NCBI GenBank assembly: GCA_964450385.1 | Contig: CAYVEC010000003.1 | Span: forward strand, 4,104-68,103 | Length of the DNA stretch: 64,000 nucleotides | DNA from: an uncultured Planctomycetales bacterium | Lineage (GTDB): Bacteria > Omnitrophota > Gorgyraeia > Zapsychrales > JANLHA01 | Reading direction: 5' to 3' | Translations under genes and position numbers: made by a program | In this document: piece by piece, positions 191 through 38,645 of the stretch | Numbering within the stretch: position 1 is the stretch's first letter | Layout of the letters: each line of letters starts with the position of its first letter | The notes under the pieces: model-generated | What the model was told of the DNA's origin: nothing | Database searches by the model: none | Seen by the model: only the letters and a program-made list of their open reading frames with translations

Positions 191-353
191 TGACCTGCCG
201 TGCCTGGCTGGCGCCTGCATTTTTCGATCGTGCTATGAAGAAAGCGCTTGCCCATTTTGACTGTTTTACCCTTTTCTTCGTATTTTTATCAGATATACTT
301 TCACTATAAAAATGTAGAGGAATCGTCAAAGATTCCGGTTTTTTTAGAAAACA

Positions 354-3300
354 TGGCAAAAAAAACCTCAAAATTCGTCTCCCTTCTTGTACTCGTCTTT
401 TTTTTGACAAGCACGATCATGCCGCCGTCGTTATCGGCACAGGGGGTGGGCCTCTCTGGGGCCCTGCCCGCACCCGGGACCTTGGTCATGCCGACTCAGG
501 CCTTTGATCCTGTTCAATTGATGGGGATGCAGATCGATCTTGCCCGGCCGTTTCAGGTGAATTTTATCCTCGACACCGGTGACACGGGGCTCATGGGCGA
601 CCCGCTTAAAGACGAGGTCACACGGATCGCGCGCTATTTTTTGGCGAGCCTCGCGCTCCCGGAGAAAGACCTCTGGGTCAACCTTTCTCCGTATGAGAAA
701 GAACGGATCATTCCCGAGGATTTCGGGCTGACTGAAATGGGGCGCGATGTCCTGGCTCAGGATTATGTCTTGAAGCAGCTCACCTCGTCGCTCCTTCATC
801 CTGACCACGCGACGGGAAAGGATTTTTGGCAAAGGATCCGTGAACGCGCGGCGCGCGAGTTCGGCGCCTCGAACATTTCGGTGGAGACCCTTCATAAAAT
901 CTGGATCGTTCCGGAAAAGGCGGAGGTCTTCGTGAACGGCAGCACCGCCCTCCTCGGCGAGGTGCGGCTGAAGGTCCTGCTTGAGGAGGATTATTGGGCG
1001 CAGAGCGAGCGCGCGTCCTCGAGTCTAGCGGCACCGGAGGGGGGTTCGGGCCTGAATGCCCTTCAGACCCAGATTCTGCGTGACGTCGTGGTCCCGGAGG
1101 TCGCGCGCGAGGTGAACGAAGGGGAGCTCTTTGCCACGCTCCGTCAGGTCTATCGCGCGATGGTCCTCGCGGTGTGGTATAAAAACACCCTGACCGAGAG
1201 CATGCTCATCCAGCGCTATGCCGACAGCGGCCGGATCGACGGGGTTGACCTCGATGACCCGGCTGAGAAAGAAAAGATCTACGCCGAGTATCTCGCGGCG
1301 TTTAAAAAAGGGGTGTTTAATTTTATCCGGGAGGATACGGAGCCCCTGACCCAGCAGGTGATCCCGAGAAAATATTTCTCCGGCGGGGTTGATAACGCGA
1401 TGATCGCTCAGGCGATTCAGGTCAAAGAAGGCCCGATCCCGTTAGAGAAGAGGAATGGAATTTTTGGCCGCATCGGCCGGGCCGGGGCAGGGGTTGTCTT
1501 GGCTGCCCTGGCGCTGACAGCTTCCGGGACCGTTCATTCAGCTGAGGCCCCTTCACGAGGGGTCATCGAGATTACTGCTGGTTCCCCGGAACAAGGCCTC
1601 ATATCAAAGGAGGCCTTTAGGAAAATTTTGGAGAAGAGGGGGGCCTTTTGGTTTGATGATGTTCGATTGGTTCTGAACAATGAAAATCTGTCCCCTGCAA
1701 TGATTCGGCCATATTGGGATATGTTTTTAAAGATGACAAGCAATTTGAAGGGGATGACAAATGATGAGCGGGCGGGTATTGTCTCGGTTCTTCACGATTC
1801 CTTCCGGCTTTTCGGGTATACAGGCGCGATCGAGCGATCAGGGGGGCAGCTTATTCCTTTTTCCGAACAGGTTTTTGGCCGGTTCTTTCAAACTTCGTCG
1901 AGTGATGGCCTAACGACGTTGTATCGTCTTGATGAGATTGACCCGCCCACGCGTGTCGCCTATGTGAAATGGGCGTCATGGGCCGTTCAACAGCGCAGGC
2001 CCGCTGGTGTCAGCGTTCCTGCTGATGTGGCCGAGGTCCTCGTTTCATTCCGCGGGTTTTATGGGCTTAAGAAGGACTTGGGGCCGAAACCATTTCAGGC
2101 CTTTTTCAATCAGGTCATTGCGGAACACCCTATCATTGCTTTAAAAGGCCTGCTGCAAGTCAAGGCCGGCAGTCCCGATTGGCTAGAATATTGGCCGCCG
2201 ATGATGAGCGCCTTGGGTAAGACCATGCGACAGATGCCATTCCAGGATGTCCGTGCGGTGAATGATGCGGTCGTGAAAATGATTTCGGATGCAGGAGGAT
2301 ATCAACAGGCGAGGCGGCTCCTTGGTAAACGATGGGTCGACTTTATGCGAAAGTTTGTTGTTGCCTCTGCAGACAGCCTGACGTCTTCACGGGCCTTGTT
2401 GGACATTGAGAGAGAGACGAGTTTTAATTATTTGCGGGCCCTTTCGTCTGTTGTTCCTTCGGATCACGAGGACTGGGAATTGGTGATGAATGATGTGTTT
2501 ACTCATGCAGCGGCTCTGTTGGGTCAGGCTCAGGGATCAGGGAGGACCGATCAGCGGCGGCACGCGTCGGCGATGGTCTATGCCGGGATGCTTCTTGGGG
2601 GGTATGACGGTATGGAGGAGTTTTTGGCTAAACAAGGCGTCTTTATGCGCGGGCCCTTGCTTGAATTTTTGGTTGCTGAGTTAGACAAGGAAGTTCAGAT
2701 CGCCCTTAATCAGGGAGCTTCGCTTGGTGTTGTGAATGAACGGCTTTCTCCTAACATGAATGCATTGATCCGGATGCTATTCTGGTATCGTTCTCTTGAT
2801 ACGGATGACGGGGAGGCCTATGCGCGTGTGATGATAGCGAAGTTACGCCGCCTCATCGGGTATTCGGGCACGGCGGAGCAGCTGTTGGCACGGCTCGATG
2901 CGAAAATTTTGATGGCGCATCTCGCTGATTTCGCGAATGGGGCGATTCATTTAGATCATGTGATTCGTGTTCTGGATCATCCACTTTTTCGTCAAGAGAC
3001 AGCGGACATGGACCCGGCGCACCGGTTTGTGGTGGCACGGATGATCGAGGTGACCCTTGAGCGGGTCGATGCGCAAATGACGGATGAGAATATCGGCATA
3101 CTTGCCCCGCTTGTGATTCAATCATGGTATGAATTCGAGGGCCGTCCTATTCTGACAGAGGGCCAGACTGTTGTGCTGGTTTATGGGGATGATAAGAAGA
3201 CTTTCGGTGATGATCTTTTTACGATTCGTGAATTGGCCAAAGATTTTCATTTGAGGCTCATCGAACTCGGACCTGAAAAGGACAAATCCGAGGTTGAAAG

Positions 3301-4108
3301 GGTTCTGCGCGACTCGAGGGTTTCAGCCGCAGTATTTATTGGTCATGGCAACCAATATCGAGATAATAGGGGGATCCCTCATACCGTGTTTGTCCGTCGA
3401 TCAACATCGCCGTCATTGGGTGTCTCACGAGACATAGGGGGCCAGGAAATTATTACGGATGAGGAGGCGGGAGCATGGATTAAAGGGAAGTCGCTCCTTG
3501 TCACAACATCATGTTACGGTGCCGATTTTTTTCGTTATGTATCCGGTGCTGTTGTAGTCGGGGATGCAGGCCGAGGCAATGTTGCGATTGGACGCTCACA
3601 TGTTTTAAAATTGTTTTTAGAGGGGGACAAGCAAGGTGGCAAGATCAGGGGGGGGGCGTTATACAACTTTGCTGATGCCCCAGAGGCTTCATTCCCATTT
3701 ATAAGTATCCCCGAGAAGCGCGGAACGGTTGAGGGAATATTCAAGCGGCTCAAATTCAAGCCAGGAAAATCAAAAAAGTCTATTGAGCCGCCGACGAATT
3801 TATACGGAGTTGTTCCGATTATTAATGATGCCGGTGATTCGTCTCGGATGTATGCCGGTCGTTCGAGCAGCGGCAATCGTGACACAGCCATGATCGCTTC
3901 GGCCTCAACTGCCAGCCCCGGCAATGATCCGGTCGGCGGTATTGACCTTAATCCCGTTAACATGGATCTTATCATCAACGGGACACTCGCTTTTCCTGAG
4001 GTGTATTTAGGAGAATCGGTTCGTTTGCCCGATGATTTCAGCGGCCTGACCCCGCAGGTTCTCTTTATGGTGCCGGTTGTGTCGGGCACCCCTGCCCAGA
4101 ATCCTTAA
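354..4108 (+). CDS. Very large secreted multidomain protein (~1251 aa) of unknown function. It has an N-terminal signal peptide, an internal hydrophobic segment (~aa 400) and a C-terminal caspase-like (clan CD) His/Cys module.
   Basis: The ORF track gives 248..4108; I moved the start to ATG 354 (MAKKTSKFVSLLVLVFFLTSTIMPPSLSAQG = signal peptide) because upstream codons are AT3-rich. The motifs VVLVYG / AAVFIGHGNQY / SLLVTTSCYGADF match a caspase-fold dyad pattern. Its N-terminus is paralogous to the partial CDS at 63660. Confidence 0.6.
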
Positions 4109-4175
4109 CCGTGCACTCACTCGAGCCCACCCTAGGAGGCGTTCTTTTAGAGGATGGCCCATGATTTAAATATTG

Positions 4176-4210
4176 ACTTTCTCGCCTTCTTTATATATAT
4201 TATGTACTCA
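4176..4210 (+). promoter_or_regulatory. Putative sigma-70 promoter for the IMPDH-like/guaA operon
   Basis: TTGACT, a 17-nt spacer, then TATATAT inside an AT-rich 200-bp intergenic region. Confidence 0.35.
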
Positions 4211-4316
4211 ATAAGCACATCAGACCTAAAAATGATGGAATTTTCTAATATTTCTTCATTTTTATATACATTTCATCGCATTTCTTTCGTTATCGTGAAC
4301 AGGAGGGCTCAATTCC

Positions 4317-5477
4317 ATGGCAGAATGGATCGGTATTGATCGGCGGGCGCGCCGGTGTTATGGTTTTGATGAAGTGGCGCTTGTCCCGGGGATGCAGACA
4401 GTAAATCCGAACGAGGTTGACACGAGCTGGACGTTCGCGGGGATGAAACTCGATATCCCGATCATGGCCGCGGCCATGGATGGGGTGGTGGATGTAGGGT
4501 TTGTGGTCGCGATGGGAAAACTTGGAGGGATCGCAGTCCTGAATCTCGACGGGGTCCAGACCCGCTATGATGACCCGAATGAAGTCTTACATGAGATCGC
4601 CGAGTCCTCGCCCGAAAAGGCCACCGAGCTGCTTCAAAAACTTTATCTTCCCCCTATTCAAGAAAAACTGATCACCCGGCGGATCGAGCAGATCCGGGCC
4701 GGGGGGGTGCCGGCGGTCGTCGGCTGTGTCCCTCAGACCGCGGAACGCTTCGGCGCGATCGCCCAGGAGGCAGGGGCGGTGGCGCTCGTCGTTCAGTCTC
4801 AGGTCTCGTCGGCCAAACACGTTTCAACCGAATATAAGGTCTGTGATTACGGCGAACTCTGTCAGACGCTTAAGATCCCGGTGGCGATCGGGAATGTCGT
4901 TACTTATAAGATGACCATGGAGCTCATGGACCTCGGCGCAAGCGCGGTCCTGATCGGCGTTGGTCCGGGCGCGGCCTGCACGACGCGCGGGGTGCTCGGG
5001 ATCGGGGTCCCGCAGATCACCTCCACGGTGGACGCGGCGGCGGCGCGGGATCATTTTTACAAACGCACGGGTAAATATGTCCCGATCATCACGGATGGCG
5101 GGATGAGGATCGCGGGCGAGATCTGTAAGGCCTTTGCCGCCGGGGCGGACGCCTGTATGGTGGGGTCTGCCTTTGCGCGGGCCGAGGAGGCCCCGGGCCG
5201 CGGATATCATTGGGGCATGGCGATGCCGCATTCGAATCTGCCGCGCGGGACACGGATTCGCGTCGGCACCTCCGGGACTCTCGCGCACATTCTCTGCGGG
5301 CCGGCCAGGGTCGACGATGGGACGCAAAATTTAATGGGGGCGCTCAAGGCCTCCATGGGGGCCCTTGGGGCACAGACACTGAAGGCGATGCATGATGTCG
5401 AGATCATCATTGCCCCGTCGATCCAGACCGAGGGTAAATCCTTTCAGGTCGGTCAGCGCGTTGGGATGGGGAAATAG
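4317..5477 (+). CDS. IMP dehydrogenase/GMP reductase family protein lacking the CBS pair (GuaB3-like)
   Basis: A TIM-barrel IMPDH-like sequence with the catalytic-loop Cys (GVGPGAACTTRGVLGIGVPQ). At 386 aa there is no CBS insertion. RBS AGGAGGG sits upstream. Confidence 0.8.
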   Translation: MAEWIGIDRRARRCYGFDEVALVPGMQTVNPNEVDTSWTFAGMKLDIPIMAAAMDGVVDVGFVVAMGKLGGIAVLNLDGVQTRYDDPNEVLHEIAESSPEKATELLQKLYLPPIQEKLITRRIEQIRAGGVPAVVGCVPQTAERFGAIAQEAGAVALVVQSQVSSAKHVSTEYKVCDYGELCQTLKIPVAIGNVVTYKMTMELMDLGASAVLIGVGPGAACTTRGVLGIGVPQITSTVDAAAARDHFYKRTGKYVPIITDGGMRIAGEICKAFAAGADACMVGSAFARAEEAPGRGYHWGMAMPHSNLPRGTRIRVGTSGTLAHILCGPARVDDGTQNLMGALKASMGALGAQTLKAMHDVEIIIAPSIQTEGKSFQVGQRVGMGK

Positions 5478-5584
5478 ACCGTGCGGCCACTGCTGGGATG
5501 GGCCGCTGAGCATACATAAAGACTGCGTGGAGCGGAGTGTCAAAGGAGAGTCGCGCACAACCAACCAACAGGCAGGAAGGCGAT

Positions 5585-7300
5585 ATGTCAAGAACAAAGG
5601 CCAAGAAGGTCGTCAAAAAAACAACCCCCAAATCCGCCGCCAAGAAGCGACCGACGTTGGTCAAGCGATCTGGACAGCGGACCTCGAAAAAAGGCGAGCC
5701 CGGCAAGATGTCCCTTCCAAAGGGTCGCTCCCGGTTCACTGTTAAGATCTCGAAGCAGCGGAATAAGGACATGATCCTGATCCTGGACTTCGGCTCTCAG
5801 TATACTCAGCTCATTGCTCGACGGATCCGCGAGCAGAAGGTTTTTAGCAAGATTGTTCCTTACACCATCAGCGCGGCGGATATTTTGAAGGAGAACCCGA
5901 AGGGGCTTATCCTGTCGGGCGGGCCGATGAGTGTTTATGATGAAGGGGCGCCTCTGCCGTGCAAGGAGATTTTTGATCTTGGCCTGCCGATCCTCGGGGT
6001 CTGCTATGGGATGCAGGCGATGGTCCATATGCATGAGGGAAAAATTTCCCGTAGCAAGACGAGGGAATATGGCCGCGCCGAGCTTTTTGTCGACCGCAAT
6101 CGTGATATCTTCGCGAACCTTCCGACGAATCTGACCTGTTGGATGAGCCATTCGGACGCTACGGTCCAGATGCCCAAGGGCTTTCAGGTTTTTGCCCATA
6201 CGCTGAACGCTCCTGTCGCTGCGATCGGCCATGTTCGGAAAAAGATCTATGGGGTTCAATTTCATCCCGAGGTGATCCATACCCAGCGCGGGGCCGAGAT
6301 CCTGGGGAATTTTGTTTTTCAGGTCTGCAATTGTTTCCCCCGTTGGACCATGGATAAATTCATCGCCATGACAACGAAACAGATCAAGGAGCGAGTCGGC
6401 CAGAAAAAGGTGGTGCTCGGGCTGAGCGGCGGGGTTGATTCGTCGGTCACGGCCATGCTCATCCATCAGGCGATCGGCCGGAAGCTCCAGTGCATCTTTG
6501 TGGACAATGGTCTCCTTCGGAAGAACGAGGTGAAGGCCGTTGAGAAGATGTTCAAAGGCGCCTTTAAGATGAATTTGACGATCATCGACGCGAGCAAGCG
6601 ATTTTTGACCCGGCTCGCGGGGGTCACGGATCCGGAACAAAAGCGGAAGATCATCGGCGACGAATTTATCAAGGTTTTTCAGGATGCGGCTAATAAGGTG
6701 AAGAATGTAAATTTCCTCGCCCAGGGGACGCTCTATCCGGATGTCATCGAATCCATCTCTCCGCTCGGCGGGCCGTCGGCCACGATCAAAAGCCATCACA
6801 ACGTGGGGGGGCTCCCGAAGAATATGAAGCTCGAGCTCATCGAGCCGCTGCGGGAGCTTTTTAAGGACGAGGTCCGGGTGATCGGAAAACACCTCGGGCT
6901 CCCTGAAAGCGTGCTCCAGCGCCAGCCTTTTCCGGGTCCGGGTCTTGCGGTTCGCATCATCGGAGATGTTACTTTGGAGCGATTGGAGATCCTTCGTGAG
7001 GCGGATGAGCGTGTTCTCGAAGAGATCAAACGCGAGGGGCTGTATGATAAGGTCTGGCAGTCGTTCGCCGTTCTTCTGCCGATCAAGAGCGTCGGGGTCA
7101 TGGGTGACCAGCGGACCTATGAAAATGTCGTCGCGATCCGATGTGTCTCGAGTCATGATGGCATGACCGCCGATTGGGTGGAGCTTCCCTATCCTGTTCT
7201 CGGGCGCATCGCGAATCGGATCATCAATGAGGTCGCGGGGGTCAATCGCGTGGTCTATGATGTGAGCTCAAAACCGCCGTCCACGATCGAGTGGGAATAA
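5585..7300 (+). CDS. guaA: GMP synthase (glutamine-hydrolysing) with an in-frame ~62-aa Lys-rich N-terminal extension. An alternative core start is ATG 5771 ([14 protein letters not shown]).
   Basis: Class I GATase ([22 protein letters not shown]) plus ATP-PPase ([10 protein letters not shown]) and a C-terminal dimerisation region. The extension [23 protein letters not shown]... has GC3-rich codons, a strong RBS (AGGAAGG) before 5585, and no stop before the core. Confidence 0.85.
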
Positions 7301-20836: not shown

Positions 20837-23173
20837 ATGAAGAGACGAATTGTGATCGGGATCGTGGCCGGCGCCCTTGTTGCGACAGGGGCTCTTGCGG
20901 TGTATCTGTTTTTGGGCCCGTCGGGCCGGCCCATGACCGAGGTTGTCCCGGCAGGGGCGGTCGTTTATTTTCAGCAGGGCGAGCCTGCGGCCAAGGTGGA
21001 ACGTCTGCTCAAGACCGAGCTCGCGAAAGAGATCTCGGCCTTGCCCTTGCGTGAGGCCTTTGACGTGCTCGAGGCCGCGGATGCGGAAAAGGATCTCGTT
21101 GACCAGGTGATGGCAGTCTGCCAGAAGAAAAGCAATCAAGAGATCGTTAAGGCCCTCTTCGGCCGTGAGGTCGCGCTTGCGGTCTATCCGGTCATGTTGG
21201 ATGGCCCCGGGGCCTCGTGGAAGGACGCCCTCGCGCAGGTCGCTGTCTTGACTCGTCTCGCCACACGGGCCTCTTTTGACGGGGTGGTTGTTCCACTTGT
21301 GCGGCAGATGCGGTCCGATATCGATATTCAGACCGTTCCCTATAAGAAGCATACGATCCATCTCGTGGGGTTCAAAGAGGCTGGCCTGCGTTTTGGTTTT
21401 GTTCAGATCGGGGATATTATGGTTGGGGGCCTCGGGGATACGATGGCTCGCCGGGCGGTTGATGTCGCGACCGGTACGGCCCCGTCGCTATCGACCGATG
21501 CCCTTTTTTTGAAGGCGGAACCCTATTTTGCGAAGGGGTCCCGGGATGTCGGGTTTGTTAATTATGAAACAGTGATCTCATTAATCCGGAAGCAGGCCAC
21601 GGCCGCTGCGGCGGCGCTGGGACCTGACCAGGTGCTCCAGGCGCTCGGCCGCCAGGAGGAGTTCTTCCGGCGGCTGAGTGGTTTTCAGGCCGTTGTGTAT
21701 ACCGCGGTCCCGCACGGCGATATGATCGAATGGGACACTGTGACGCTTTATGATATTGATCAAATGCACCCTGACTTCCGTGCGGCTTATGTGGCGCGGC
21801 CGAAGGCGAATCGTTCGATCGATCTGATCCCATCGGACACCTTGGCCTATTATTGGCAGAGCGGGATCGATTTCCGAAATTATTGGGAACAGGGTCAAGA
21901 GCAGATGCGGGCGCTTGCCACAGGGCTTGAGGCCGATGAGGAAAAATCTCCGGAGCGGTTTATACAGTCGATCGAGGATCAGTTCGCCGTCAGTATCGAA
22001 CGCGCAGTCTTGCCGATCCTGGGGGATGAGTTCGGGTGGTGTCTTGCTGATTTTCAGGGTCTCGGACCGATCGTGATCCCGGATGTGGTGTTCTTTTTAA
22101 AGGTCACTGATGCCAAGGCGGCCGGGGAGCTGATCCAACAGATAGTGGGCCGGATCACATTCCTTCAGGCGGATGAAACTCAGCGTGATGGGCATTCCGT
22201 CTGGTCGGTGCGGATCCCGATGGTGAGTGACCTTGAACCGGCCCTCGCTGTCATTAAAGATTATATGGTGCTCGGGACGAAGAAGGCGACCGTTGAGAAG
22301 ATGATCGATACCGCCGCCGGGACGGTCACGGGATTGGGTTCTGTCCCTGTGGGGAAGGACGGTCGTCTTGGGCTTATGGGTCCGCAGAACATGGTGTCCT
22401 ATGTGAATTCGGCAGAGTTGATGGGTAAGACCGGCGCCCTGGTTGATGCCGCAGGTTATTGGTCCGAGATGCAGGATTCACGGAATCAGGCCCTTCGTGA
22501 CGGGGCTGAGCAGCGCCTCCGCGAGGTTGCCGGGCGCATCACCGAGCGCGAGCAGGAATTTTTGACGGTTGAGGCCGAGGCCTTGGCGCTACAGGCCGAG
22601 GATGAAGCCGCGCCTGCCATTGACCCGCAGAAACAGGAAGAGGTCGTCTCACAGCGTGAGCGTCAGGCCAAGGTCGTTGATAATGCCGCCGCCCGGATCA
22701 CGGAGTTGGAGGGCGAGCAGGCGAGGCTTATCAAGGCCCGCGATGCCGAGGGCCAGACGTTAAGCCCCGAGGGAGAGCAGCGGCTTGCGGAGATCAATGG
22801 GGAGCTCGTTTCACGTCGAGAACGGCTTGCGCGGCTCAAGGAATCGCTTGCGGCCGTTGAAGCGGAATATCAGGGGCTCGAGCGCGCTTCATCGGAACGG
22901 ATATCCCGGCGAGATCGGCTCGACACGGCGGCTGCCCGGCTTCAGGAGATCCGGAATCAGATGCGTGCCGATGAGGAGATCCGTGAGGAGATCCGGACCA
23001 TGATCGCCGGCTATGCCCAGGCGCAGAGCTTCGATGAGGACCAGCGCAGGTTTATTTTGGACCGGCTGGTGAAACCCTTTTTGTCGGCCTTGAAGAATAT
23101 CGAATGGGCCGTGATGAACGGCTCGGTCGGCGCTAAGGAGATGACGATCAAATCGTTTTTGAAGATTCGTTAG
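20837..23173 (+). CDS. Hypothetical membrane-anchored protein with a long C-terminal coiled coil
   Basis: An N-terminal TM helix, a ~500-aa extracytoplasmic region and a ~250-aa heptad-rich, E/R/A/L-rich tail. Codons are GC3-rich. Confidence 0.6.
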   Translation: MKRRIVIGIVAGALVATGALAVYLFLGPSGRPMTEVVPAGAVVYFQQGEPAAKVERLLKTELAKEISALPLREAFDVLEAADAEKDLVDQVMAVCQKKSNQEIVKALFGREVALAVYPVMLDGPGASWKDALAQVAVLTRLATRASFDGVVVPLVRQMRSDIDIQTVPYKKHTIHLVGFKEAGLRFGFVQIGDIMVGGLGDTMARRAVDVATGTAPSLSTDALFLKAEPYFAKGSRDVGFVNYETVISLIRKQATAAAAALGPDQVLQALGRQEEFFRRLSGFQAVVYTAVPHGDMIEWDTVTLYDIDQMHPDFRAAYVARPKANRSIDLIPSDTLAYYWQSGIDFRNYWEQGQEQMRALATGLEADEEKSPERFIQSIEDQFAVSIERAVLPILGDEFGWCLADFQGLGPIVIPDVVFFLKVTDAKAAGELIQQIVGRITFLQADETQRDGHSVWSVRIPMVSDLEPALAVIKDYMVLGTKKATVEKMIDTAAGTVTGLGSVPVGKDGRLGLMGPQNMVSYVNSAELMGKTGALVDAAGYWSEMQDSRNQALRDGAEQRLREVAGRITEREQEFLTVEAEALALQAEDEAAPAIDPQKQEEVVSQRERQAKVVDNAAARITELEGEQARLIKARDAEGQTLSPEGEQRLAEINGELVSRRERLARLKESLAAVEAEYQGLERASSERISRRDRLDTAAARLQEIRNQMRADEEIREEIRTMIAGYAQAQSFDEDQRRFILDRLVKPFLSALKNIEWAVMNGSVGAKEMTIKSFLKIR

Positions 23174-33070: not shown

Positions 33071-34414
33071 ATGAAAAAAGTGTTATTAGCCGTACTCGCG
33101 ATCGCGTTGATGGCTGCGCCGGCGTTTGCTAGCGTGCAGAACATCAAGGTGAGCGGGGACATCGAGACAACATACCTGAATCGTGAGAACTTTGATTTGG
33201 GCGGCTCAACGGCCACCTATGATCAGAGCGTCTTCTTGATGCAGACACGCCTGCGCGTTGATTCCGATCTGACCGACAAGGTTGCGGCCACGATCGCCCT
33301 GATCAACGAGCGCGAATGGGGTGCCAGCACCACGACGACAGGTGTCGACCTGAATCTTGCCTATGTGACGATGAAAGAGATGCTCTATTCTCCGCTCACC
33401 GTCACGCTCGGGCGCCAGAATTTTGCCTTCGGGAATTCGTTTGTGATCGATTCCGCAGGGACAAACAATTCGGCTCCGGCTGATTCGGGCTTGAACAGTA
33501 TCGCCGAGGATTTAACCAAGCAGACGGCTCAGGATGCAATCCGCCTGACGTTTGATTACAATCCGTTGACGATCGATGTGGTTTATTCCAAGATCACTCA
33601 GGGTGTTGTTTCCGGGACGATCGAGGATGATGACACAGACCTCATCGGGATGAACGCCAGCTATCAGTTCGATGATGAGAAGGCGACGCTTGTCGAGGGG
33701 TATTTATGGGTGAAGAATGACAAGCCGGCAGCTCTGGGAGCGGGCGATGATAACGCCAAGACCGACAGAGTCTATATGCCCGGTGTGCGTTCCAGCATGA
33801 ACATCTTGGATGGATGGAATCTTCAGGGTGAGTTTGCCTACCAGACCGGCACGAAGTATCTTGGCGCTGCTGGTGAGCATGCCAGCCGCAAGGCCTATGC
33901 AGCTCAGGTGATCTCGAGCCATGCCTTGAAGTTCGAGAAGACTGCAAAGTATAAGCCGGTGTTCGCGATGTCCTACACGATGTATTCAGGGGACACGAAT
34001 GGGGCTCCTGGTGATGAGCGCTATAGCGCATGGGATCCCATGTATGAGAATCAGGCAGGTGGCAAGATCTACAACACCTTGTTCAATGCGAGCAACTGCC
34101 ATATCGTTGGCGCGAGCCTTTCAATGGTTCCGGCGGAGGACGTGATGGCTCAGCTCTATTTTGATCATCTGTTTTTGGATAAGGAAGTTGGGGCCTTTGC
34201 CCTCAATCAGCCTGACGGATCGACCTCGACACCGACTCAGAAAGGTAACGAAAGCCTCGGCAACGAGGTTGGGATGGTCGTGACGTATGACTACACCGAG
34301 GATGTTCAGCTTGGCGCTCGCGCGGGCTGGTTCTTCCCCGGGTCACGTTATGGCAATGACAAGAAGAATGATTCTGCCTCGCAGGTTTTGTTGAACGCGA
34401 AGGTGTCATTCTAA
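33071..34414 (+). CDS. Outer-membrane beta-barrel protein, porin-like
   Basis: Signal peptide MKKVLLAVLAIALMAAPAFA, alternating amphipathic strands and a C-terminal Phe (..AKVSF). It has a ~190-nt 5'UTR and a strong terminator after it. Confidence 0.7.
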   Translation: MKKVLLAVLAIALMAAPAFASVQNIKVSGDIETTYLNRENFDLGGSTATYDQSVFLMQTRLRVDSDLTDKVAATIALINEREWGASTTTTGVDLNLAYVTMKEMLYSPLTVTLGRQNFAFGNSFVIDSAGTNNSAPADSGLNSIAEDLTKQTAQDAIRLTFDYNPLTIDVVYSKITQGVVSGTIEDDDTDLIGMNASYQFDDEKATLVEGYLWVKNDKPAALGAGDDNAKTDRVYMPGVRSSMNILDGWNLQGEFAYQTGTKYLGAAGEHASRKAYAAQVISSHALKFEKTAKYKPVFAMSYTMYSGDTNGAPGDERYSAWDPMYENQAGGKIYNTLFNASNCHIVGASLSMVPAEDVMAQLYFDHLFLDKEVGAFALNQPDGSTSTPTQKGNESLGNEVGMVVTYDYTEDVQLGARAGWFFPGSRYGNDKKNDSASQVLLNAKVSF

Positions 34415-34427
34415 CTTCAGTTAAAGA

Positions 34428-34477
34428 TTGTGATGTGGAGGCCGGCAGGAGAGTTTCCTGCCGGCCTCTTTGTTTTG
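34428..34477 (+). terminator. Rho-independent terminator after the OMP gene
   Basis: Stem gaggccggcagga/tcctgccggcctc followed by TTTGTTTT. Confidence 0.7.
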
Positions 34478-34715
34478 CGGCATTGCGTGACGCTGCCGTC
34501 AGAGGTGGGGCCCGCAGTGAATAAAAAAATTTCATGCTCATGAGGCCCTGCGCGGATCCATTCAGTCTTTTTCCGACGAGAAAAATAAAAAAAATACATA
34601 AAAAAAAATTAAAAAAGATTCCCTCCTGTCGTCTTATTTGTTATTATAAAATCAATTATAATGATGATTAGGTTTAAAGAAGTATTTAAACCTTTTGATA
34701 TTAGTGAGTTGTGCT

Positions 34716-35291
34716 ATGACCAGAGATGAAATTTATGATCATCTGGCTCAGGTGTACCTTGGGAAAAAGCGGCAGACCCAGGAACCGCCCCCGCGGCAGA
34801 TCAGCACCTGGCTTGTGATCAATATGATGATAACCGTGGTGATTTTTGCCACGTCGGTTTACGGTCTTACCGCTTTTCTTGCTCGACGGGGAGACCTCTT
34901 GGAGCAGCGCGTCATCTACGCCCTGAACAAGGGGCCGATCCGAGTGCCGTATGATGTGCGGCAGCCCTACCCTCAGGTGAAGACGTTCTCGCTTCCGGTG
35001 ACGGGCGTGGACGCGGGCAAATTCGGACGGCTTCAGTTTGCGGTCCGCGCGAGTGAGGGCGGGTCGCCCGGGGTGATACGGATCGAGGTGCGGAATCAAC
35101 GCCACGAAGTGAGCTCGCGGATCATCGATGGGATTGGTCATCAGTGGAGGCAGCGGAGTATCGCGTTTGAGGATTTTGCAGAGATCTCGGATTGGTCGAC
35201 GGTGTCAGAGATCCATTTTATTATTGAGGCGTGGAACGCAGATAAGAAAAAGGGCGCAGTACTAATCGATGACATCTGTTTTTCGAGTTAA
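34716..35291 (+). CDS. Hypothetical single-pass membrane protein with a ~140-aa extracytoplasmic beta-rich domain
   Basis: First ATG in the ORF, one TM (WLVINMMITVVIFATSVYGLTAFL), GC3-rich codons. It heads the ParA cluster. Confidence 0.55.
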   Translation: MTRDEIYDHLAQVYLGKKRQTQEPPPRQISTWLVINMMITVVIFATSVYGLTAFLARRGDLLEQRVIYALNKGPIRVPYDVRQPYPQVKTFSLPVTGVDAGKFGRLQFAVRASEGGSPGVIRIEVRNQRHEVSSRIIDGIGHQWRQRSIAFEDFAEISDWSTVSEIHFIIEAWNADKKKGAVLIDDICFSS

Positions 35292-35309
35292 CAGAAAGGG
35301 CCTGGCAAC

Positions 35310-36407
35310 ATGAAAATCATTTCGATCGGGAATCAGAAAGGCGGCTGCGGGAAGACCACGACGGCGATCAATCTTGCGTCGTCATTCGCCCAGAATGGGA
35401 AGCGCACCCTGCTCATTGATTTGGACCCGCAGGCCCACGCGTCGCTCGGCCTGAATTTCGAATGCCAGGAGAGCATGTACAATGTGATCTCGAGACTCGC
35501 GCCCCGGAAGCTCGGGATCGTTCAGATTATCAAGCGTGTTGAGAAGAATTTTGATATTGTCCCGTCGAACCTTCTCGTTGGGACCCTCGAGCAGGAGCTT
35601 GCTGATGAGATCGGGCGCGAGACAAAGCTCGCCGAGGTCCTGGCACCGCTTCAGAGTGAGTATGATTATATTCTTATTGATTGTCCGCCGAGCCTGGGGT
35701 TCCTCACGATCAACGCGATCCGCGCGAGCCACGAGATCTATATCCCGGTTGAGACGAGCCGGTTCTCTCTCCAGGGGGTGGACCATGTTCTCGATATTAT
35801 CCGTCTGATCCGTCAGCGTCTCAATCATCCCGTTGAATATAAGGTTTTGGTGACGATGTTTGATTCCCGGCTGCGTCATTCCTTTGCGATGCTATCCAAG
35901 ATGCGCGAGATGTTCGGCGAAAATCTTTTTGACACCATCGTTCATGTGAATGTGAAGCTTAAAGAGTCGGCGGTGATGGGCCGGACCGTTGCAGCCTATG
36001 ATAAATATTGCCGCGGGGCCAAGGATTATTTTTCGTTGGCCAAAGAGGTGATCGCGCACCATGACGCCCTGCCGTCGTCGCATCCGGACATCTCGGACCG
36101 CCTGAGAGAGCTCATCCATCAGGAGACCCGCGAGATGGTCCGGCTGACCCGTTTTCAGCTTGCGGCCCCCGAGGCCCGGTCGGTCTATGTGACGGGAAGT
36201 TTTAACGATTGGTCTCTCGATGAGAAGTATCGCATGGTGTCTGATAACGGGGTCTGGTCTGTGGAGATCCCGCTCAAGCCGGGGAACTATCGGTATCAGT
36301 TTATTGTCGATGGGCGCTGGCGGGAAGATCCGGCGAACCCTGAGCAGGAACGTAATTCATTCGGTGATATCAATTCGCTTCTCGAGGTAGCATCCCATGA
36401 ATCATGA
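35310..36407 (+). CDS. ParA/MinD-family ATPase fused to a C-terminal AMPK-beta-like glycogen-binding domain (CBM48)
   Basis: Deviant Walker A KGGCGKTT, D-x-x-P and a Soj-like core (~255 aa). The C-terminus SVYVTGSFNDWSLDEKYRMVSDNGVWSVEIPLKPGNYRYQFIVDGRWREDPANP matches the AMPK beta GBD (..LSGSFNNWS..GEHQYKFFVDGQWTHDP..). Confidence 0.85.
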   Translation: MKIISIGNQKGGCGKTTTAINLASSFAQNGKRTLLIDLDPQAHASLGLNFECQESMYNVISRLAPRKLGIVQIIKRVEKNFDIVPSNLLVGTLEQELADEIGRETKLAEVLAPLQSEYDYILIDCPPSLGFLTINAIRASHEIYIPVETSRFSLQGVDHVLDIIRLIRQRLNHPVEYKVLVTMFDSRLRHSFAMLSKMREMFGENLFDTIVHVNVKLKESAVMGRTVAAYDKYCRGAKDYFSLAKEVIAHHDALPSSHPDISDRLRELIHQETREMVRLTRFQLAAPEARSVYVTGSFNDWSLDEKYRMVSDNGVWSVEIPLKPGNYRYQFIVDGRWREDPANPEQERNSFGDINSLLEVASHES

Positions 36408-36720
36408 GGACCGGGCTATTGATGGGATCGACGCCGAAGAAAAGGTGTTTGGCTTTTTGTCATATCTGTCGCTGCTCTGCATTGTCCCCCTTCTGATGAA
36501 ACGCGAGAGCGATTTCGTTTTGTTTCATGCGAAACAGGGGCTGATCCTGTTTTTAGGGCAGGTCGCCCTCTTCGTTTTAAGCACTGTCTTCCCCTGGGTT
36601 GTCCGCCCGGGGGCGTTCATTCTTTCAGCACTCGCTTTTTGGGGGATCGTTGAGGTTCTCTGCGGGCACAAAACCGCCTTGCCGGTTGTCTCGCATATTG
36701 CCGAAAAGATTTCTCTATAA
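36397..36720 (+). CDS. DUF4870-like small membrane protein
   Basis: FGFLSYLSLLCIVPLLMKRESDFVLFHAKQGLILF pattern. The start overlaps the ParA stop. Confidence 0.6.
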   Translation: MNHEDRAIDGIDAEEKVFGFLSYLSLLCIVPLLMKRESDFVLFHAKQGLILFLGQVALFVLSTVFPWVVRPGAFILSALAFWGIVEVLCGHKTALPVVSHIAEKISL

Positions 36721-36752
36721 GATCGCCGCTGACGATCCCTGACGACTGATTC

Positions 36753-37466
36753 ATGAGCATGATTGAGCATTTATTCCGCGCGTTACAGAGCGTCTTTGGT
36801 GCGCCGCCGAGAGTCCGGCGGCGACCGAGGACGGTTCGAAAGACAGCGTCGAGGACTAGACGCCTGGTGTCGCGTCAAGGGCGGCACGCGGGGGCGCGCG
36901 GGTCTCGGACCAAACGCCGCGAGAAGATATCGGCGCGCCGGCCCGTGGCAAAGACCGCAACAAAGGGTTCCAAAAAGACAGCTGCGACGGCGGTTAAAAA
37001 AAAGGTCAAGAAGGTTGTAAAAAAGGCTGTCGTGCGCCCCGTGACAAAGAGGCCCGTGAAGGCCGCGGGTCACGCGGCAAAAAAGGCGGCCGTTCGGCCT
37101 CCTCAGGTTCGGGCAGGTTCGCGGTCGTCAGGGGGTGCTCAGAAGATGCTAAAGAGCGGCCGACGGCCTGCCGATCAGCTGCGCAGGACATCGAACGCCG
37201 CTGCCCGCGATGAAGGGGTTTTTGTCGGTGAGATCACGCATTATTTTTCAAAGATCATGGTCTGCGTTGTGAAGATCGAGGGGGCGAGCTTGTTGATCCA
37301 CGATCAGGTTCATATCAAAGGGGCCACAACGGATATCCGTCAGGCGATCAGGTCCATGCAGATTGAAAGCCGGGATGTCACGGTCGCGCGGTCCGGGCAA
37401 CTCGTGGGGCTAAAGGTATCACGGATGGTCCGTGTGGGTGACAGGGTCTATAAGGTTTCAAAATAG
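36753..37466 (+). CDS. Basic protein with an Arg/Lys/Ala-rich histone-H1-like N-terminal half and a C-terminal small beta-barrel (EF-Tu domain-2-like)
   Basis: AKTATKGSKKTAATAVKKKVKKVVKKAVVRPVTKRPVKAAGHAAKKAAVRP low complexity, then VGEITHYFSKIMVCVVKIEGASLLIHDQVHIKG...VGLKVSRMVRVGDRVYKV. Confidence 0.55.
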   Translation: MSMIEHLFRALQSVFGAPPRVRRRPRTVRKTASRTRRLVSRQGRHAGARGSRTKRREKISARRPVAKTATKGSKKTAATAVKKKVKKVVKKAVVRPVTKRPVKAAGHAAKKAAVRPPQVRAGSRSSGGAQKMLKSGRRPADQLRRTSNAAARDEGVFVGEITHYFSKIMVCVVKIEGASLLIHDQVHIKGATTDIRQAIRSMQIESRDVTVARSGQLVGLKVSRMVRVGDRVYKVSK

Positions 37467-37477
37467 GAGGGGTCAGG

Positions 37478-38227
37478 ATGAATATCATGGATGCGATTGT
37501 CCTGGGTCTTCTCTGTGTGTCGCTCTGGATCGGATGGCGGCGGGGCTTTGTCCGAACGATCATGGGTCCTGTGTCGATGGCTGTTTGTGTTTATGCGGCC
37601 TATTATTATCTTCGGACGGCAGGCCTGGTCATCGCGGTGTGCATTTCCTTACTTGGCCCGGTGGTGATTGCGCTTCTCATGAAGCTCGCTCGGTGGATTT
37701 TGTATAAACCCCAGGATAAGGCGGCTGAGGAGGGGACGCTCACCATGGTCAACCATTGGTTGGGCATGGCGGCAAGTTTCGGGTGGGCGGTCTTTTTGAT
37801 CTGGGTGACGTATTTGGCGGTGGTGTATACCTATGTCCCGGTGCGCTTGACCATTCTTGACCCGGTCTATCGCACGGTCATTAACTCGACCGGGTATCGG
37901 CTGTTCTGCCGGGTTTCGGGACGGGACACGTTATGCCGCGCCCAACAGTCCGGTTTTCAATCCGGCGGCGATGGGGCTGCCGTCGACATGGACCGGATCC
38001 GGACGTCAGAGGAGTATACGCGTTTGATCACACGCCCTGAGGTGAAGCGCCTCTTTGAGAATGAAACATTTTTAACATACGCGCGCGAACGGAATTTTTC
38101 TGGGATCATTCAGGATAAGGAGTTTCAGCAGATTCTTGCTGATCCGGAGGTCTTAAAGGATTTCATGAAATTATATCAACGGATGGTTGAGGTCCAGTCA
38201 GACGCGGCGCCAGAGGCCGTTAAGTAG
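37478..38227 (+). CDS. CvpA-family membrane protein
   Basis: N-terminus MNIMDAIVLGLLCVSLWIGWRRGFVR is like CvpA, with 4 TM helices. RBS AGGAGG. Confidence 0.65.
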   Translation: MNIMDAIVLGLLCVSLWIGWRRGFVRTIMGPVSMAVCVYAAYYYLRTAGLVIAVCISLLGPVVIALLMKLARWILYKPQDKAAEEGTLTMVNHWLGMAASFGWAVFLIWVTYLAVVYTYVPVRLTILDPVYRTVINSTGYRLFCRVSGRDTLCRAQQSGFQSGGDGAAVDMDRIRTSEEYTRLITRPEVKRLFENETFLTYARERNFSGIIQDKEFQQILADPEVLKDFMKLYQRMVEVQSDAAPEAVK

Positions 38228-38249
38228 CTTGATCATCGGAGGAGAGAGA

Positions 38250-38645
38250 ATGGCAACTATTTTTTCGCGGATCATTCGGGGAGAGATCCCCTGTCACAAG
38301 ATCGCTGAGGATGAGCGGTTTCTTGCTTTTTTGGATATCCGCCCGCTCCGGCCTGGGCACACCCTGGTCATTCCGAAAGAGGAGAGTAATTATATTTTTT
38401 CTATGGAAGACACGGCCCTCGCGGACTTGATGGTCTTTGCTAAGAAGGTGGCGCGACGGATCGAACGCGCGGTCCCGTGTGAGCGCATCGGTGTCATTGT
38501 CTGCGGGATCGAGGTCCCGCATACCCATATTCATCTTGTGCCGATCGATGCGGTCCGAGATCTGAATTTTGCCAATGCTAAAGAGATGCCGAACGAGGAG
38601 CTTGCGGCGATCGCCGAGAGGATCCGGGGTGTTGCGGAAGGATGA
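38250..38645 (+). CDS. HIT-family (histidine triad) protein
   Basis: HTHIHLVP histidine triad in a HinT-like protein of 131 aa. Confidence 0.85.
   Translation: MATIFSRIIRGEIPCHKIAEDERFLAFLDIRPLRPGHTLVIPKEESNYIFSMEDTALADLMVFAKKVARRIERAVPCERIGVIVCGIEVPHTHIHLVPIDAVRDLNFANAKEMPNEELAAIAERIRGVAEG

Follow-up and report, generated by a model that had tools for sequence, protein, structure and literature searches.

A widespread ParA-type ATPase with a fused AMPK-type glycogen-binding module, encoded in a conserved Omnitrophota operon and possibly positioning glycogen

A 64,000-nucleotide (nt) stretch of an Omnitrophota genome (contig CAYVEC010000003.1 of assembly GCA_964450385.1, positions 4,104-68,103 of the forward strand; GTDB lineage Omnitrophota; Gorgyraeia; Zapsychrales; JANLHA01), hereafter the window, encodes a ParA-family ATPase of 365 amino acids (aa) that carries a C-terminal carbohydrate-binding module (CBM) of the AMPK-beta type. 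The gene for this protein, here called ParA-CBM (35310..36407, + strand; AAA_31 plus AMPK1_CBM), is the second of six co-directional + strand open reading frames (ORFs) between 34716 and 38645, with successive gaps of 18, -11, 32, 11 and 22 nt. Our re-derivation gave the same ORFs, coordinates and tight same-strand spacing as a first-pass annotation of this DNA. Omnitrophota are a phylum of ultra-small, mostly uncultured cells. We propose, as an interpretation that we somewhat favour, that the ParA-CBM operon encodes a system that uses ATP to tether or position cytoplasmic glycogen (alpha-glucan).

The ATPase domain (residues 1-252, 35310..36065) is of the Soj type with a deviant Walker A motif, KGGCGKT. 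Pfam AAA_31 matched residues 1-174 of the product (E = 3.7e-51, 174 bits), and comparison of the N-terminal 250 residues with PDB sequences gave 174 bits to 8RAY, 143 bits to Thermus Soj and 137 bits to Helicobacter pylori Soj. An AlphaFold2 model built with 65 homologs had a mean predicted local distance difference test (pLDDT) score of 82.7, rising to about 90 in the ATPase core (residues 1-252), and Foldseek placed Soj/ParA structures nearest to this core (target TM 0.81-0.88). The signature lysine lies within NQKGGCGKTT at residues 8-17; K10, G11, G12, C13, G14, K15, D37, D39 and D124, which belong to the Walker A, A' and B motifs, are invariant in the close clade, and the signature lysine and the catalytic residues of all three motifs are invariant in both the close and the distant alignments. 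With these residues intact and a fold closest to Soj, the ATPase should be active. The nonspecific DNA-binding patch of Soj was mapped through an alignment with H. pylori Soj (HpSoj, 8JMJ), taking B. subtilis (Bsu) R189 and HpSoj K199, K227, K230 and K247 as the DNA-binding residues (PMC6393308). R187 (equivalent to Bsu R189) and K216 (HpSoj K230) are kept and invariant, and F192 stands at the position of HpSoj K199. Because the patch is kept only in part, the matrix on which ParA-CBM would act is uncertain, and nucleoid binding is plausible rather than established. The Walker A position occupied by Val in canonical ParA and Soj is Cys13 in ParA-CBM (35346..35348). All clades have this Cys, without exception among close members and with a conservation of at least 90% among distant ones, and it is a possible family signature or redox-sensitive site.

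The ATPase core is followed by a flexible hinge and a single helix (residues 253-277, 36066..36140), modelled as a disordered segment at 253-262 (pLDDT <50 at 255-261) and a helix at 263-276. Linker length varies across the family from about 30 to about 350 aa, of low complexity and in some members long and acidic or Pro-rich (P0264, P0284, P0296 and P0324), as expected for a tether. The C-terminal domain (residues 278-360, 36141..36389) is predicted to be an AMPK-beta-type CBM48. AMPK1_CBM (PF16561) matched residues 288-362 with E = 1.2e-16 and 61.1 bits (cut-off 26.8), CBM_48 (PF02922) gave a weaker overlapping match (33.1 bits against a threshold of 22.4), and PDB searches with the C-terminus returned crystal structures of the AMPK beta1 and beta2 CBM (1Z0N, 2F15 and others; E about 1e-8). 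The AlphaFold2 model shows an eight-stranded all-beta domain at residues 278-360 (pLDDT 87-94), so that both the CBM48 assignment and the beta-sandwich fold anticipated by the first-pass annotation were recovered.

To compare binding residues, 229 family CBMs (120 close and 109 distant) were aligned to human AMPK beta1, whose sequence, numbering and sugar-binding residues (W100, K126, W133, L146 and N150) we take to be as in the literature on 1Z0N. In the close clade W301, W337 and N355 are invariant, and Q330 occupies the AMPK K126 position. The second stacking Trp, AMPK W133, is kept in 226 of the 229 modules, the N150 position is Asn or Asp in 222 of 229, and the K126 position is Lys or Arg in 107 of the 109 distant members. 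The L146 position is usually Phe or Tyr, the W100 position is invariant but was required by the selection motif, and the Ser108 position is not conserved in the family. With the stacking Trp and Asn conserved and the beta-domain confidently predicted, the CBM48 looks functional. Giant proteins with tandem AMPK-type CBM48 repeats were also among the best CBM matches (P0241, 1812 aa; P0257, 1409 aa; P0269, 1436 aa; P0334, 1337 aa), and P0241 has up to 18 stretches matching the window CBM.

The fusion is common. A word-indexed homolog search returned 7,930 ParA-family matches, and the best 120 of these were full-length, shared 57-83% identity and contained both PF13614 and PF16561; those with a named source came from Candidatus Omnitrophota without exception. 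An exhaustive search of 50%-identity representatives found the fusion in >100 further 50%-identity clusters. These distant members include dozens of proteins of ~350-385 aa that match end to end at 33-47% identity and many of 400-700 aa that match in two stretches, the ATPase and the CBM, with long acidic or Pro-rich linkers between; named ones include Ca. Glassbacteria and Leptospirillia. A metagenome scan with the distant-member alignment added 80 loci, nearly all spanning query residues 1-361. The related loci (L001-L089) include many short metagenome loci, taxonomy is known for a handful of members, and ORFs were called greedily as the longest ORF, which makes cluster counts approximate. 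Average-linkage clustering of all loci resolved 16 ATPase clades at about 50% identity. Hundreds of independent assemblies (NCBI, JGI, ENA and Logan; 33-83% identity) contain this fusion with the same junction, and the chimeric assembly about which the first-pass annotation was concerned is thereby excluded. Only one NCBI contig is recorded with the exact window protein. On the sequence record, ParA-CBM is a large family across several phyla and is not peculiar to this genome.

Within Omnitrophota, ParA-CBM belongs to a conserved module. In 6/6 loci of 50-83% ParA identity, tblastn recovered the order porin, p191 (the 191-aa product of the gene immediately upstream), ParA-CBM, DUF4870-like protein and Lys-rich beta-barrel protein, with PPDK, sigma-70 and APRT genes further upstream in the four of the six that extend far enough. 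Clade 1 comprises 29 loci, of which 27 have p191, 22 the beta-barrel protein and 17 the DUF4870-like protein; in several loci the beta-barrel gene comes directly after ParA-CBM, with no DUF4870-like gene. The gap between p191 and ParA-CBM has a median of about 16 nt, the next gene usually starts with an overlap of -8 relative to the ParA-CBM stop, and the DUF4870-like and beta-barrel genes are 7-68 nt apart. This spacing supports an operon core of p191, ParA-CBM, often the DUF4870-like protein, and the Lys-rich beta-barrel protein. The linkage of ParA-CBM to its membrane and basic neighbours that the first-pass annotation drew from one locus therefore recurs across the Omnitrophota clade. Its inclusion of the CvpA-family membrane protein (37478..38227, +; Colicin_V, 37 bits) and the HIT-family hydrolase (38250..38645, +; HIT, 68 bits) fared differently: Pfam confirmed both gene identities and the CvpA gene is probably co-transcribed here, but CvpA, HIT and an ADP-forming acetyl-CoA synthetase follow the module only in the two closest relatives (L004 and L005), and CvpA and HIT were rejected as module members.

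The upstream boundary of the operon lies behind an Alginate_exp-family outer-membrane porin (33071..34414, +; PF13372, 67 bits), a conserved upstream neighbour that is probably a separate transcription unit. Downstream of its gene comes an intrinsic terminator (34437..34469, +; 15-bp stem, 10 GC pairs and a T-tract), followed by an AT-rich spacer of ~240 nt read from the sequence. The porin occurs at -2 or -3 in 18 loci and never comes closer than 272 nt to p191; given the strong terminator and this gap, it was rejected as an operon member. A search of the 300-nt leader against Rfam gave a match to the 3' end of CsrC at 34380..34480 (+), which scored 19.8 bits against a gathering score of 61, sits on the terminator hairpin and was rejected as chance. 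Elsewhere in the related loci, the beta-barrel gene of L050, L057 and L079 is soon followed by one for a proteasome-like protein of 238 aa, and a Wzz/BY-kinase-like chain-length cluster lies 8-12 genes downstream in L045 (5315..8332), L054 (13568..16631) and L079 (16061..19229).

The upstream partner p191 (34716..35291, +) is a bitopic membrane protein that belongs to no Pfam family. The first-pass annotation had called it a single-pass membrane protein; the single transmembrane helix stands (residues 31-63, 34806..34904; AlphaFold2 helix 31-63, hydrophobic core 33-51), and a CBM-like jelly-roll beta-sandwich that had been missed is predicted at residues 67-190 (34914..35285). A search found 490 homologs; the 120 listed are ~190 aa long and lack a Pfam domain, and the few named ones are from Omnitrophota. 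Its gene holds the -1 position relative to ParA-CBM in 26-27 of the 29 loci of clade 1. Residues 1-20 (MTRDEIYDHLAQVYLGKK; 34716..34775, +) form a predicted cytoplasmic peptide: the first 18-20 residues are near-invariant in proteins that are ~55% identical overall, R3, D4, I6, Y7, H9, L10, A11, V13, Y14, G16 and K17 are invariant in 54 sequences, and residues 3-18 are modelled as a helix. More Lys and Arg flank the transmembrane helix on its N-terminal than on its C-terminal side in 103 of 120 sequences, placing the N-terminus in the cytoplasm by the positive-inside rule. An invariant, cytoplasmic, N-terminal helix encoded immediately upstream of ParA resembles an ATPase-docking peptide, and we regard it as a candidate ParA-docking or ParA-activating peptide. 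The expectation of a basic N-terminal partner peptide is thereby modified, since the best candidate is the p191 N-terminus and not only the basic tail of the beta-barrel protein. The C-terminal domain of p191 is 17-19% identical to the beta-glucan modules CBM11, CBM8 and CBM30, with no Pfam or sequence membership, and is carried on a transmembrane helix with a conserved cytoplasmic peptide, whereas those modules are carried on glycoside hydrolases. The operon is thus predicted to encode two CBM-type domains on opposite sides of the inner membrane.

The two downstream partners are less uniform. A three-helix membrane protein of 107 aa (36397..36720, +), whose start overlaps the ParA-CBM stop by 11 nt, had been labelled DUF4870; the window copy does not match PF09685 even at E ≤ 10, but the label holds at family level because 12/17 orthologs match (best E = 5e-6), the L001 ortholog having a weak precomputed match. 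The gene is at +1 of ParA-CBM in 16 loci and absent in part of the clade. The Lys/Arg/Ala-rich-tail plus beta-barrel protein of 237 aa (36753..37466, +) combines a disordered tail (~1-155) with a barrel at ~158-237 (37215..37463), and its homologs are at +1 or +2 of ParA-CBM in 21 loci. Its tail is kept in composition and not in sequence or length (about 40-160 aa), whereas the ~80-aa barrel is conserved, as is the C-terminus by tblastn. The small beta-barrel proposed in the first-pass annotation has no Pfam match in the window copy; a homolog search with the 83-aa domain gave at least eight proteins, among which P0396 scored 27 bits to EF-Tu domain 2 (PF03144), short of the 30.3 cut-off, and a second showed a weak match to Peptidase_U32_C. 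The Lys-rich tail could bind DNA, a polyanion or ParA.

Genes for alpha-glucan enzymes (GH57, GlgB, glycogen synthase or phosphorylase) lie near ParA-CBM in 4/16 clades. In L007 (GCA_040961635.1), two unannotated genes, GH57, DUF4912 and a branching-enzyme-type gene (GH57 plus BE_C) lie in this order downstream of ParA-CBM, all on its strand; in L036, a same-strand array of a GT5-type synthase, GH57 and a 1434-aa fusion precedes ParA-CBM; and in L015, a GlgB-type GH13 branching enzyme is two genes away. The fourth setting is Omnitrophota-type, in which a ~515-aa GH57 (210 bits) lies between porin and p191 in 12-13 loci, 9-220 nt from p191 in all but one of 12 measured. Of 572 flanking ORFs with a length of at least 150 aa, about 19-20 encode alpha-glucan enzymes, and a random gene has, by rough estimate, a few-per-thousand chance of being one; on this comparison such enzymes are enriched near ParA-CBM. 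The L036 fusion, directly upstream of ParA-CBM (2490..6794, +), joins glycogen synthase (PF05693), DUF3417 and alpha-glucan phosphorylase, placing synthesis and degradation domains on one polypeptide. In a published study, glycogen synthesis was inferred in most of the Omnitrophota metagenome-assembled genomes studied there (PMC8542988). The earlier reasoning from a carbohydrate-binding ParA to an alpha-glucan cargo is supported by the conserved CBM residues and by the alpha-glucan genes that adjoin in four clades. Its other suggestion, a surface polysaccharide, is weakened because the porin is cut off by its terminator and intergenic distance.

Outside Omnitrophota the partners differ. In 18 loci the ORF directly downstream of ParA-CBM starts with K/R-x-LGRGL-[ED][DE][VI][SA][HD]-x-F[LI]S. 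The first ten residues of H. pylori ParB (HpParB) are MAKNKVLGRG, Leu7 and Arg9 are conserved among ParBs, HpParB Arg9 is needed for HpParA binding, and Arg10 of T. thermophilus Spo0J (TtSpo0J) is needed to stimulate Soj (PMC11229316). By sequence, the LGRGL peptide matches this N-terminal ParA-interaction peptide of chromosomal ParB. Iterative searches distinguished two arrangements. In one, the peptide is on a degenerate ParA-fold protein that is followed by a ~190-aa protein with a domain here called c10 (L007, L008, L009, L024, L036 and others); in the other, peptide and c10 domain are directly fused (cluster c10), or a different domain takes the place of c10 (c12). The degenerate proteins (L007 9168..10190, L009 5053..5946, L036 8197..9036 and L024 2420..3325) begin 'LGRGL..SHLFLS' and have no Walker A evident by eye, so that a ParB-like activator peptide appears on a ParA-like fold. 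The c10 domain (~150-190 aa; L013 9105..9806, L036 9033..9611, L008 10889..11443 and others) is the commonest shared ParA-CBM partner outside Omnitrophota and has no Pfam match; its motif GEIDLLAVD...IIDFE resembles PD-(D/E)xK/NucS-like nuclease folds, a likeness seen by eye in one motif with no tool support. No LG[RK]G motif occurs in Omnitrophota-type loci, the sole window match being an antisense ORF inside PPDK. Homology of the p191 N-terminus (DEIYDHLAQVYLGKK) to '..EDVSHLFLS.K' of the ParB-like peptide was considered and rejected; because a one-residue register shift is needed and p191 has no LGRG core, the match is a resemblance only. No canonical ParB was found beside ParA-CBM in the window or in L001-L089 (by Pfam for the window, L001-L003, L007-L009, L015 and L036; by ORF clustering and LG[RK]G scan elsewhere). 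In clade 9 (L034, L042, L044, L058, L084 and L085), the gene after a long-linker ParA-CBM often encodes a secreted protein with a P_proprotein domain and a PEP-CTERM anchor, and neither an LGRGL partner nor p191 was found in this clade. As partner sets differ by lineage, ParA-CBM has dedicated, lineage-specific partners.

We infer the following mechanism. ATP binding would dimerize the ATPase domain, as is usual in the family and as the intact catalytic residues would allow, and the dimer would sit on a matrix, most likely the nucleoid as for Soj. Its two tethered CBM48 modules would hold a cytoplasmic glycogen granule, or enzymes on the granule, until the N-terminal peptide of a partner triggers ATP hydrolysis and release; repeated cycles of binding and release would tether, space and partition granules, and the ATP requirement would couple granule positioning to the energy state of the cell. 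In Omnitrophota, p191 would be the activator or a landmark, with its helix inside the cytoplasm and its CBM11-like domain across the inner membrane, tying the system to the envelope, and the DUF4870-like and Lys-rich beta-barrel proteins would be accessory partners, the tail of the latter perhaps binding DNA or ParA. The partners of this ATPase in other phyla would be the downstream proteins bearing the ParB-type 'K.LGRGL' peptide.

ParA-CBM can be compared with several known systems. Chromosomal Soj/ParA proteins (T. thermophilus 1WCV/2BEK, H. pylori 6IUB/8JMJ, and 8RAY) have the same fold and signature lysine at ~34-39% identity over 250 aa, and the catalytic Asp and the Bsu R189 and HpSoj K230 equivalents are conserved in ParA-CBM. 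Unlike them, ParA-CBM has a tethered C-terminal CBM48, a Walker A Cys for Val and no adjacent ParB or parS found; it lacks two of the four lysines with which HpSoj contacts DNA, and its partners are unlike ParB beyond the peptide. Like McdA/McdB, PomXYZ, ParC/ParP and PpfA/TlpT, it is an orphan ParA beside small lineage-specific partners with disordered or basic N-termini, and its cargo, like that of McdA and other organelle-positioning ParAs, is presumably a cytoplasmic body other than DNA (review PMC11407121). Foldseek matched McdA (6NON) at E = 1.6e-15, whereas sequence similarity to McdA is low (53 bits) and the partners have no sequence similarity to McdB. In McdA/McdB-type systems an adaptor recognizes the cargo, whereas here the ATPase itself carries the putative cargo module. 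The AMPK beta CBM (1Z0N, 2F15) shares with the fused domain the best Pfam model, the two stacking Trp, Asn150, size and fold; the latter differs in being bacterial, in sitting on a ParA ATPase and not on a kinase scaffold, and in its Ser108 and, within the clade, K126 positions. The unusual points would be a built-in cargo module, a polysaccharide cargo and a trans-membrane partner.

Several observations weigh against a glycogen-positioning role. In the Soj DNA-binding patch, HpSoj K227 is replaced by V213 and K247 by Y233 (with K232 and R235 adjacent). In the CBM, the AMPK K126 position is Gln in 120/120 close members. The window has no glg or GH57 gene in its 64 kb, the GH57 neighbour is absent in the window's own sub-clade, and the clade-1 GH57 adjacency may stem from one ancestral arrangement and not from many independent events. 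Synteny alone cannot prove functional coupling, because gene order is conserved all the way from PPDK to the beta-barrel gene. The proposed kinetic scheme is without precedent, because in classical systems the activator resides on the cargo and ParA makes no direct contact with that cargo. Of the three Omnitrophota partners, two are membrane proteins, and the CBM-like domain of p191 is predicted to be periplasmic, and these features fit an envelope function at least as easily.

One rival explanation, which we think unlikely though deserving of serious weight, is an envelope or polysaccharide machine in which ParA-CBM joins p191 and the DUF4870-like protein at the inner membrane and places or regulates a glycan complex there, while the CBM48 binds nascent or recycled glucan. 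BcsQ for cellulose synthase and BY-kinases for capsule export provide models. Besides the two membrane proteins and the predicted location of the p191 domain outside the cytoplasm, this explanation can draw on the conserved Alginate_exp neighbour, on the downstream Wzz/BY-kinase cluster of some Omnitrophota-type loci and on a likeness to BcsQ, itself a ParA/MinD-fold ATPase tied to polysaccharide biology and membrane partners (CBP_BcsQ 45.5 bits; Foldseek to 6YAY, E = 2.5e-14). However, the NCBIfam BcsQ model TIGR03371 gives 70.1 against 157.85 bits, no bcs genes lie in the window, BcsQ has no CBM, and the porin stands apart behind its terminator. The CBM is moreover on a protein without a signal peptide, the partners of members from other phyla are soluble, with no membrane proteins among them, and the linked enzymes (GH57, GT5, glycogen synthase/phosphorylase and GlgB) are of the kinds that act on intracellular glycogen, a compartment assigned from what is known of these families.

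We give little credence to a chromosomal Soj with a glycogen-sensing add-on, whose cargo would be DNA and whose CBM would couple segregation or replication control to carbon stores in an AMPK-like manner. The kinship of the ATPase domain to chromosomal Soj/ParA, the ParB N-terminal LGRGL peptide kept by partners in other phyla, and the c10 domain, which by eye resembles a PD-(D/E)xK/NucS-like fold that could bind DNA, speak for it, as does the finding that three 'second ParA' genes in related loci encode BY-kinase/Wzz-type ATPases and are not parA-parB. Literature searches for an ordinary ParAB alongside ParA-CBM in Omnitrophota found nothing. Against it, no ParB (ParBc/HTH) gene was identified beside ParA-CBM in the window or ~89 related loci, the Omnitrophota locus stands amid housekeeping genes (PPDK, sigma-70 and APRT) and not origin-proximal ones, and Leptospirillia and similar bacteria presumably have an ordinary ParAB. 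The family also appears to form its own clade with a diagnostic Walker A Cys, distant fusions scoring 214-329 bits compared with 174 bits for 8RAY, which matches the ATPase domain alone, so that the scores are not domain-matched. Slightly less credible to us is a CBM48-like domain that no longer binds glycan and serves as a protein-contact or regulatory module, the ATPase positioning some other protein cargo. E-set and CBM48-like folds also serve in protein contacts, as in a T9SS plug model that matches the CBM region, Gln replaces AMPK K126 in the window clade, and no glycogen gene is nearby in 12/16 clades; yet both stacking Trp and the Asn are almost universal across the 16 clades, the best score (61 bits) is that of the glycogen-binding AMPK model and not of generic E-set models, and the links to alpha-glucan enzymes are recurrent and architecturally different. 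An artefact, whether chimeric assembly or fortuitous non-functional domain accretion, has next to no chance of accounting for a junction shared by hundreds of independent assemblies in conserved synteny.

All confidently annotated genes of the window run in the + direction, and each 2-kb bin shows positive GC skew, which together describe a single co-oriented 64-kb gene run, presumably on the leading strand. The largest unannotated protein, of 1286 aa (248..4108, +), matches no Pfam family at E ≤ 1e-5, and a 778-aa product (20837..23173) has only a sub-threshold match to DUF3352.

A literature search combining ParA, MinD or positioning with glycogen, CBM48 or glycogen-binding found no description of such a system, in agreement with the earlier statement that no characterized system has this architecture. 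A 2024 review of ParA/MinD ATPases makes no mention of glycogen, carbohydrate or storage, polysaccharide is not among the cargos it covers, and a 2024 review of prokaryotic alpha-glucan metabolism makes no mention of ParA. The organization and inheritance of bacterial glycogen granules are essentially unstudied, and neither review mentions a dedicated positioning system. ParA-CBM bears a domain that itself hints at the cargo, and W301, W337, K10, D39, the p191 1-20 and LGRGL peptides and the natural variation in linker length provide handles on it. Taken to its full extent, a proposal that we advance only tentatively and regard as rather doubtful, a widespread class of ParA would tether, space and partition glycogen granules, providing the first polysaccharide cargo for ParA/MinD and the first such ATPase with its own cargo module, and the Omnitrophota version would connect across the inner membrane with a periplasmic CBM-like landmark, p191, coupling the position of the store to ATP and the envelope. 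If true, polysaccharide stores would join the cargos of ParA/MinD ATPases, and motor and cargo adaptor would be a single polypeptide, a new design. It would further suggest AMPK-like logic in bacteria, in the form of an ATP-gated protein that reads glycogen, and would give a function to four protein families, namely p191, the DUF4870-like proteins, the Lys-rich beta-barrel proteins and the c10-domain partners.

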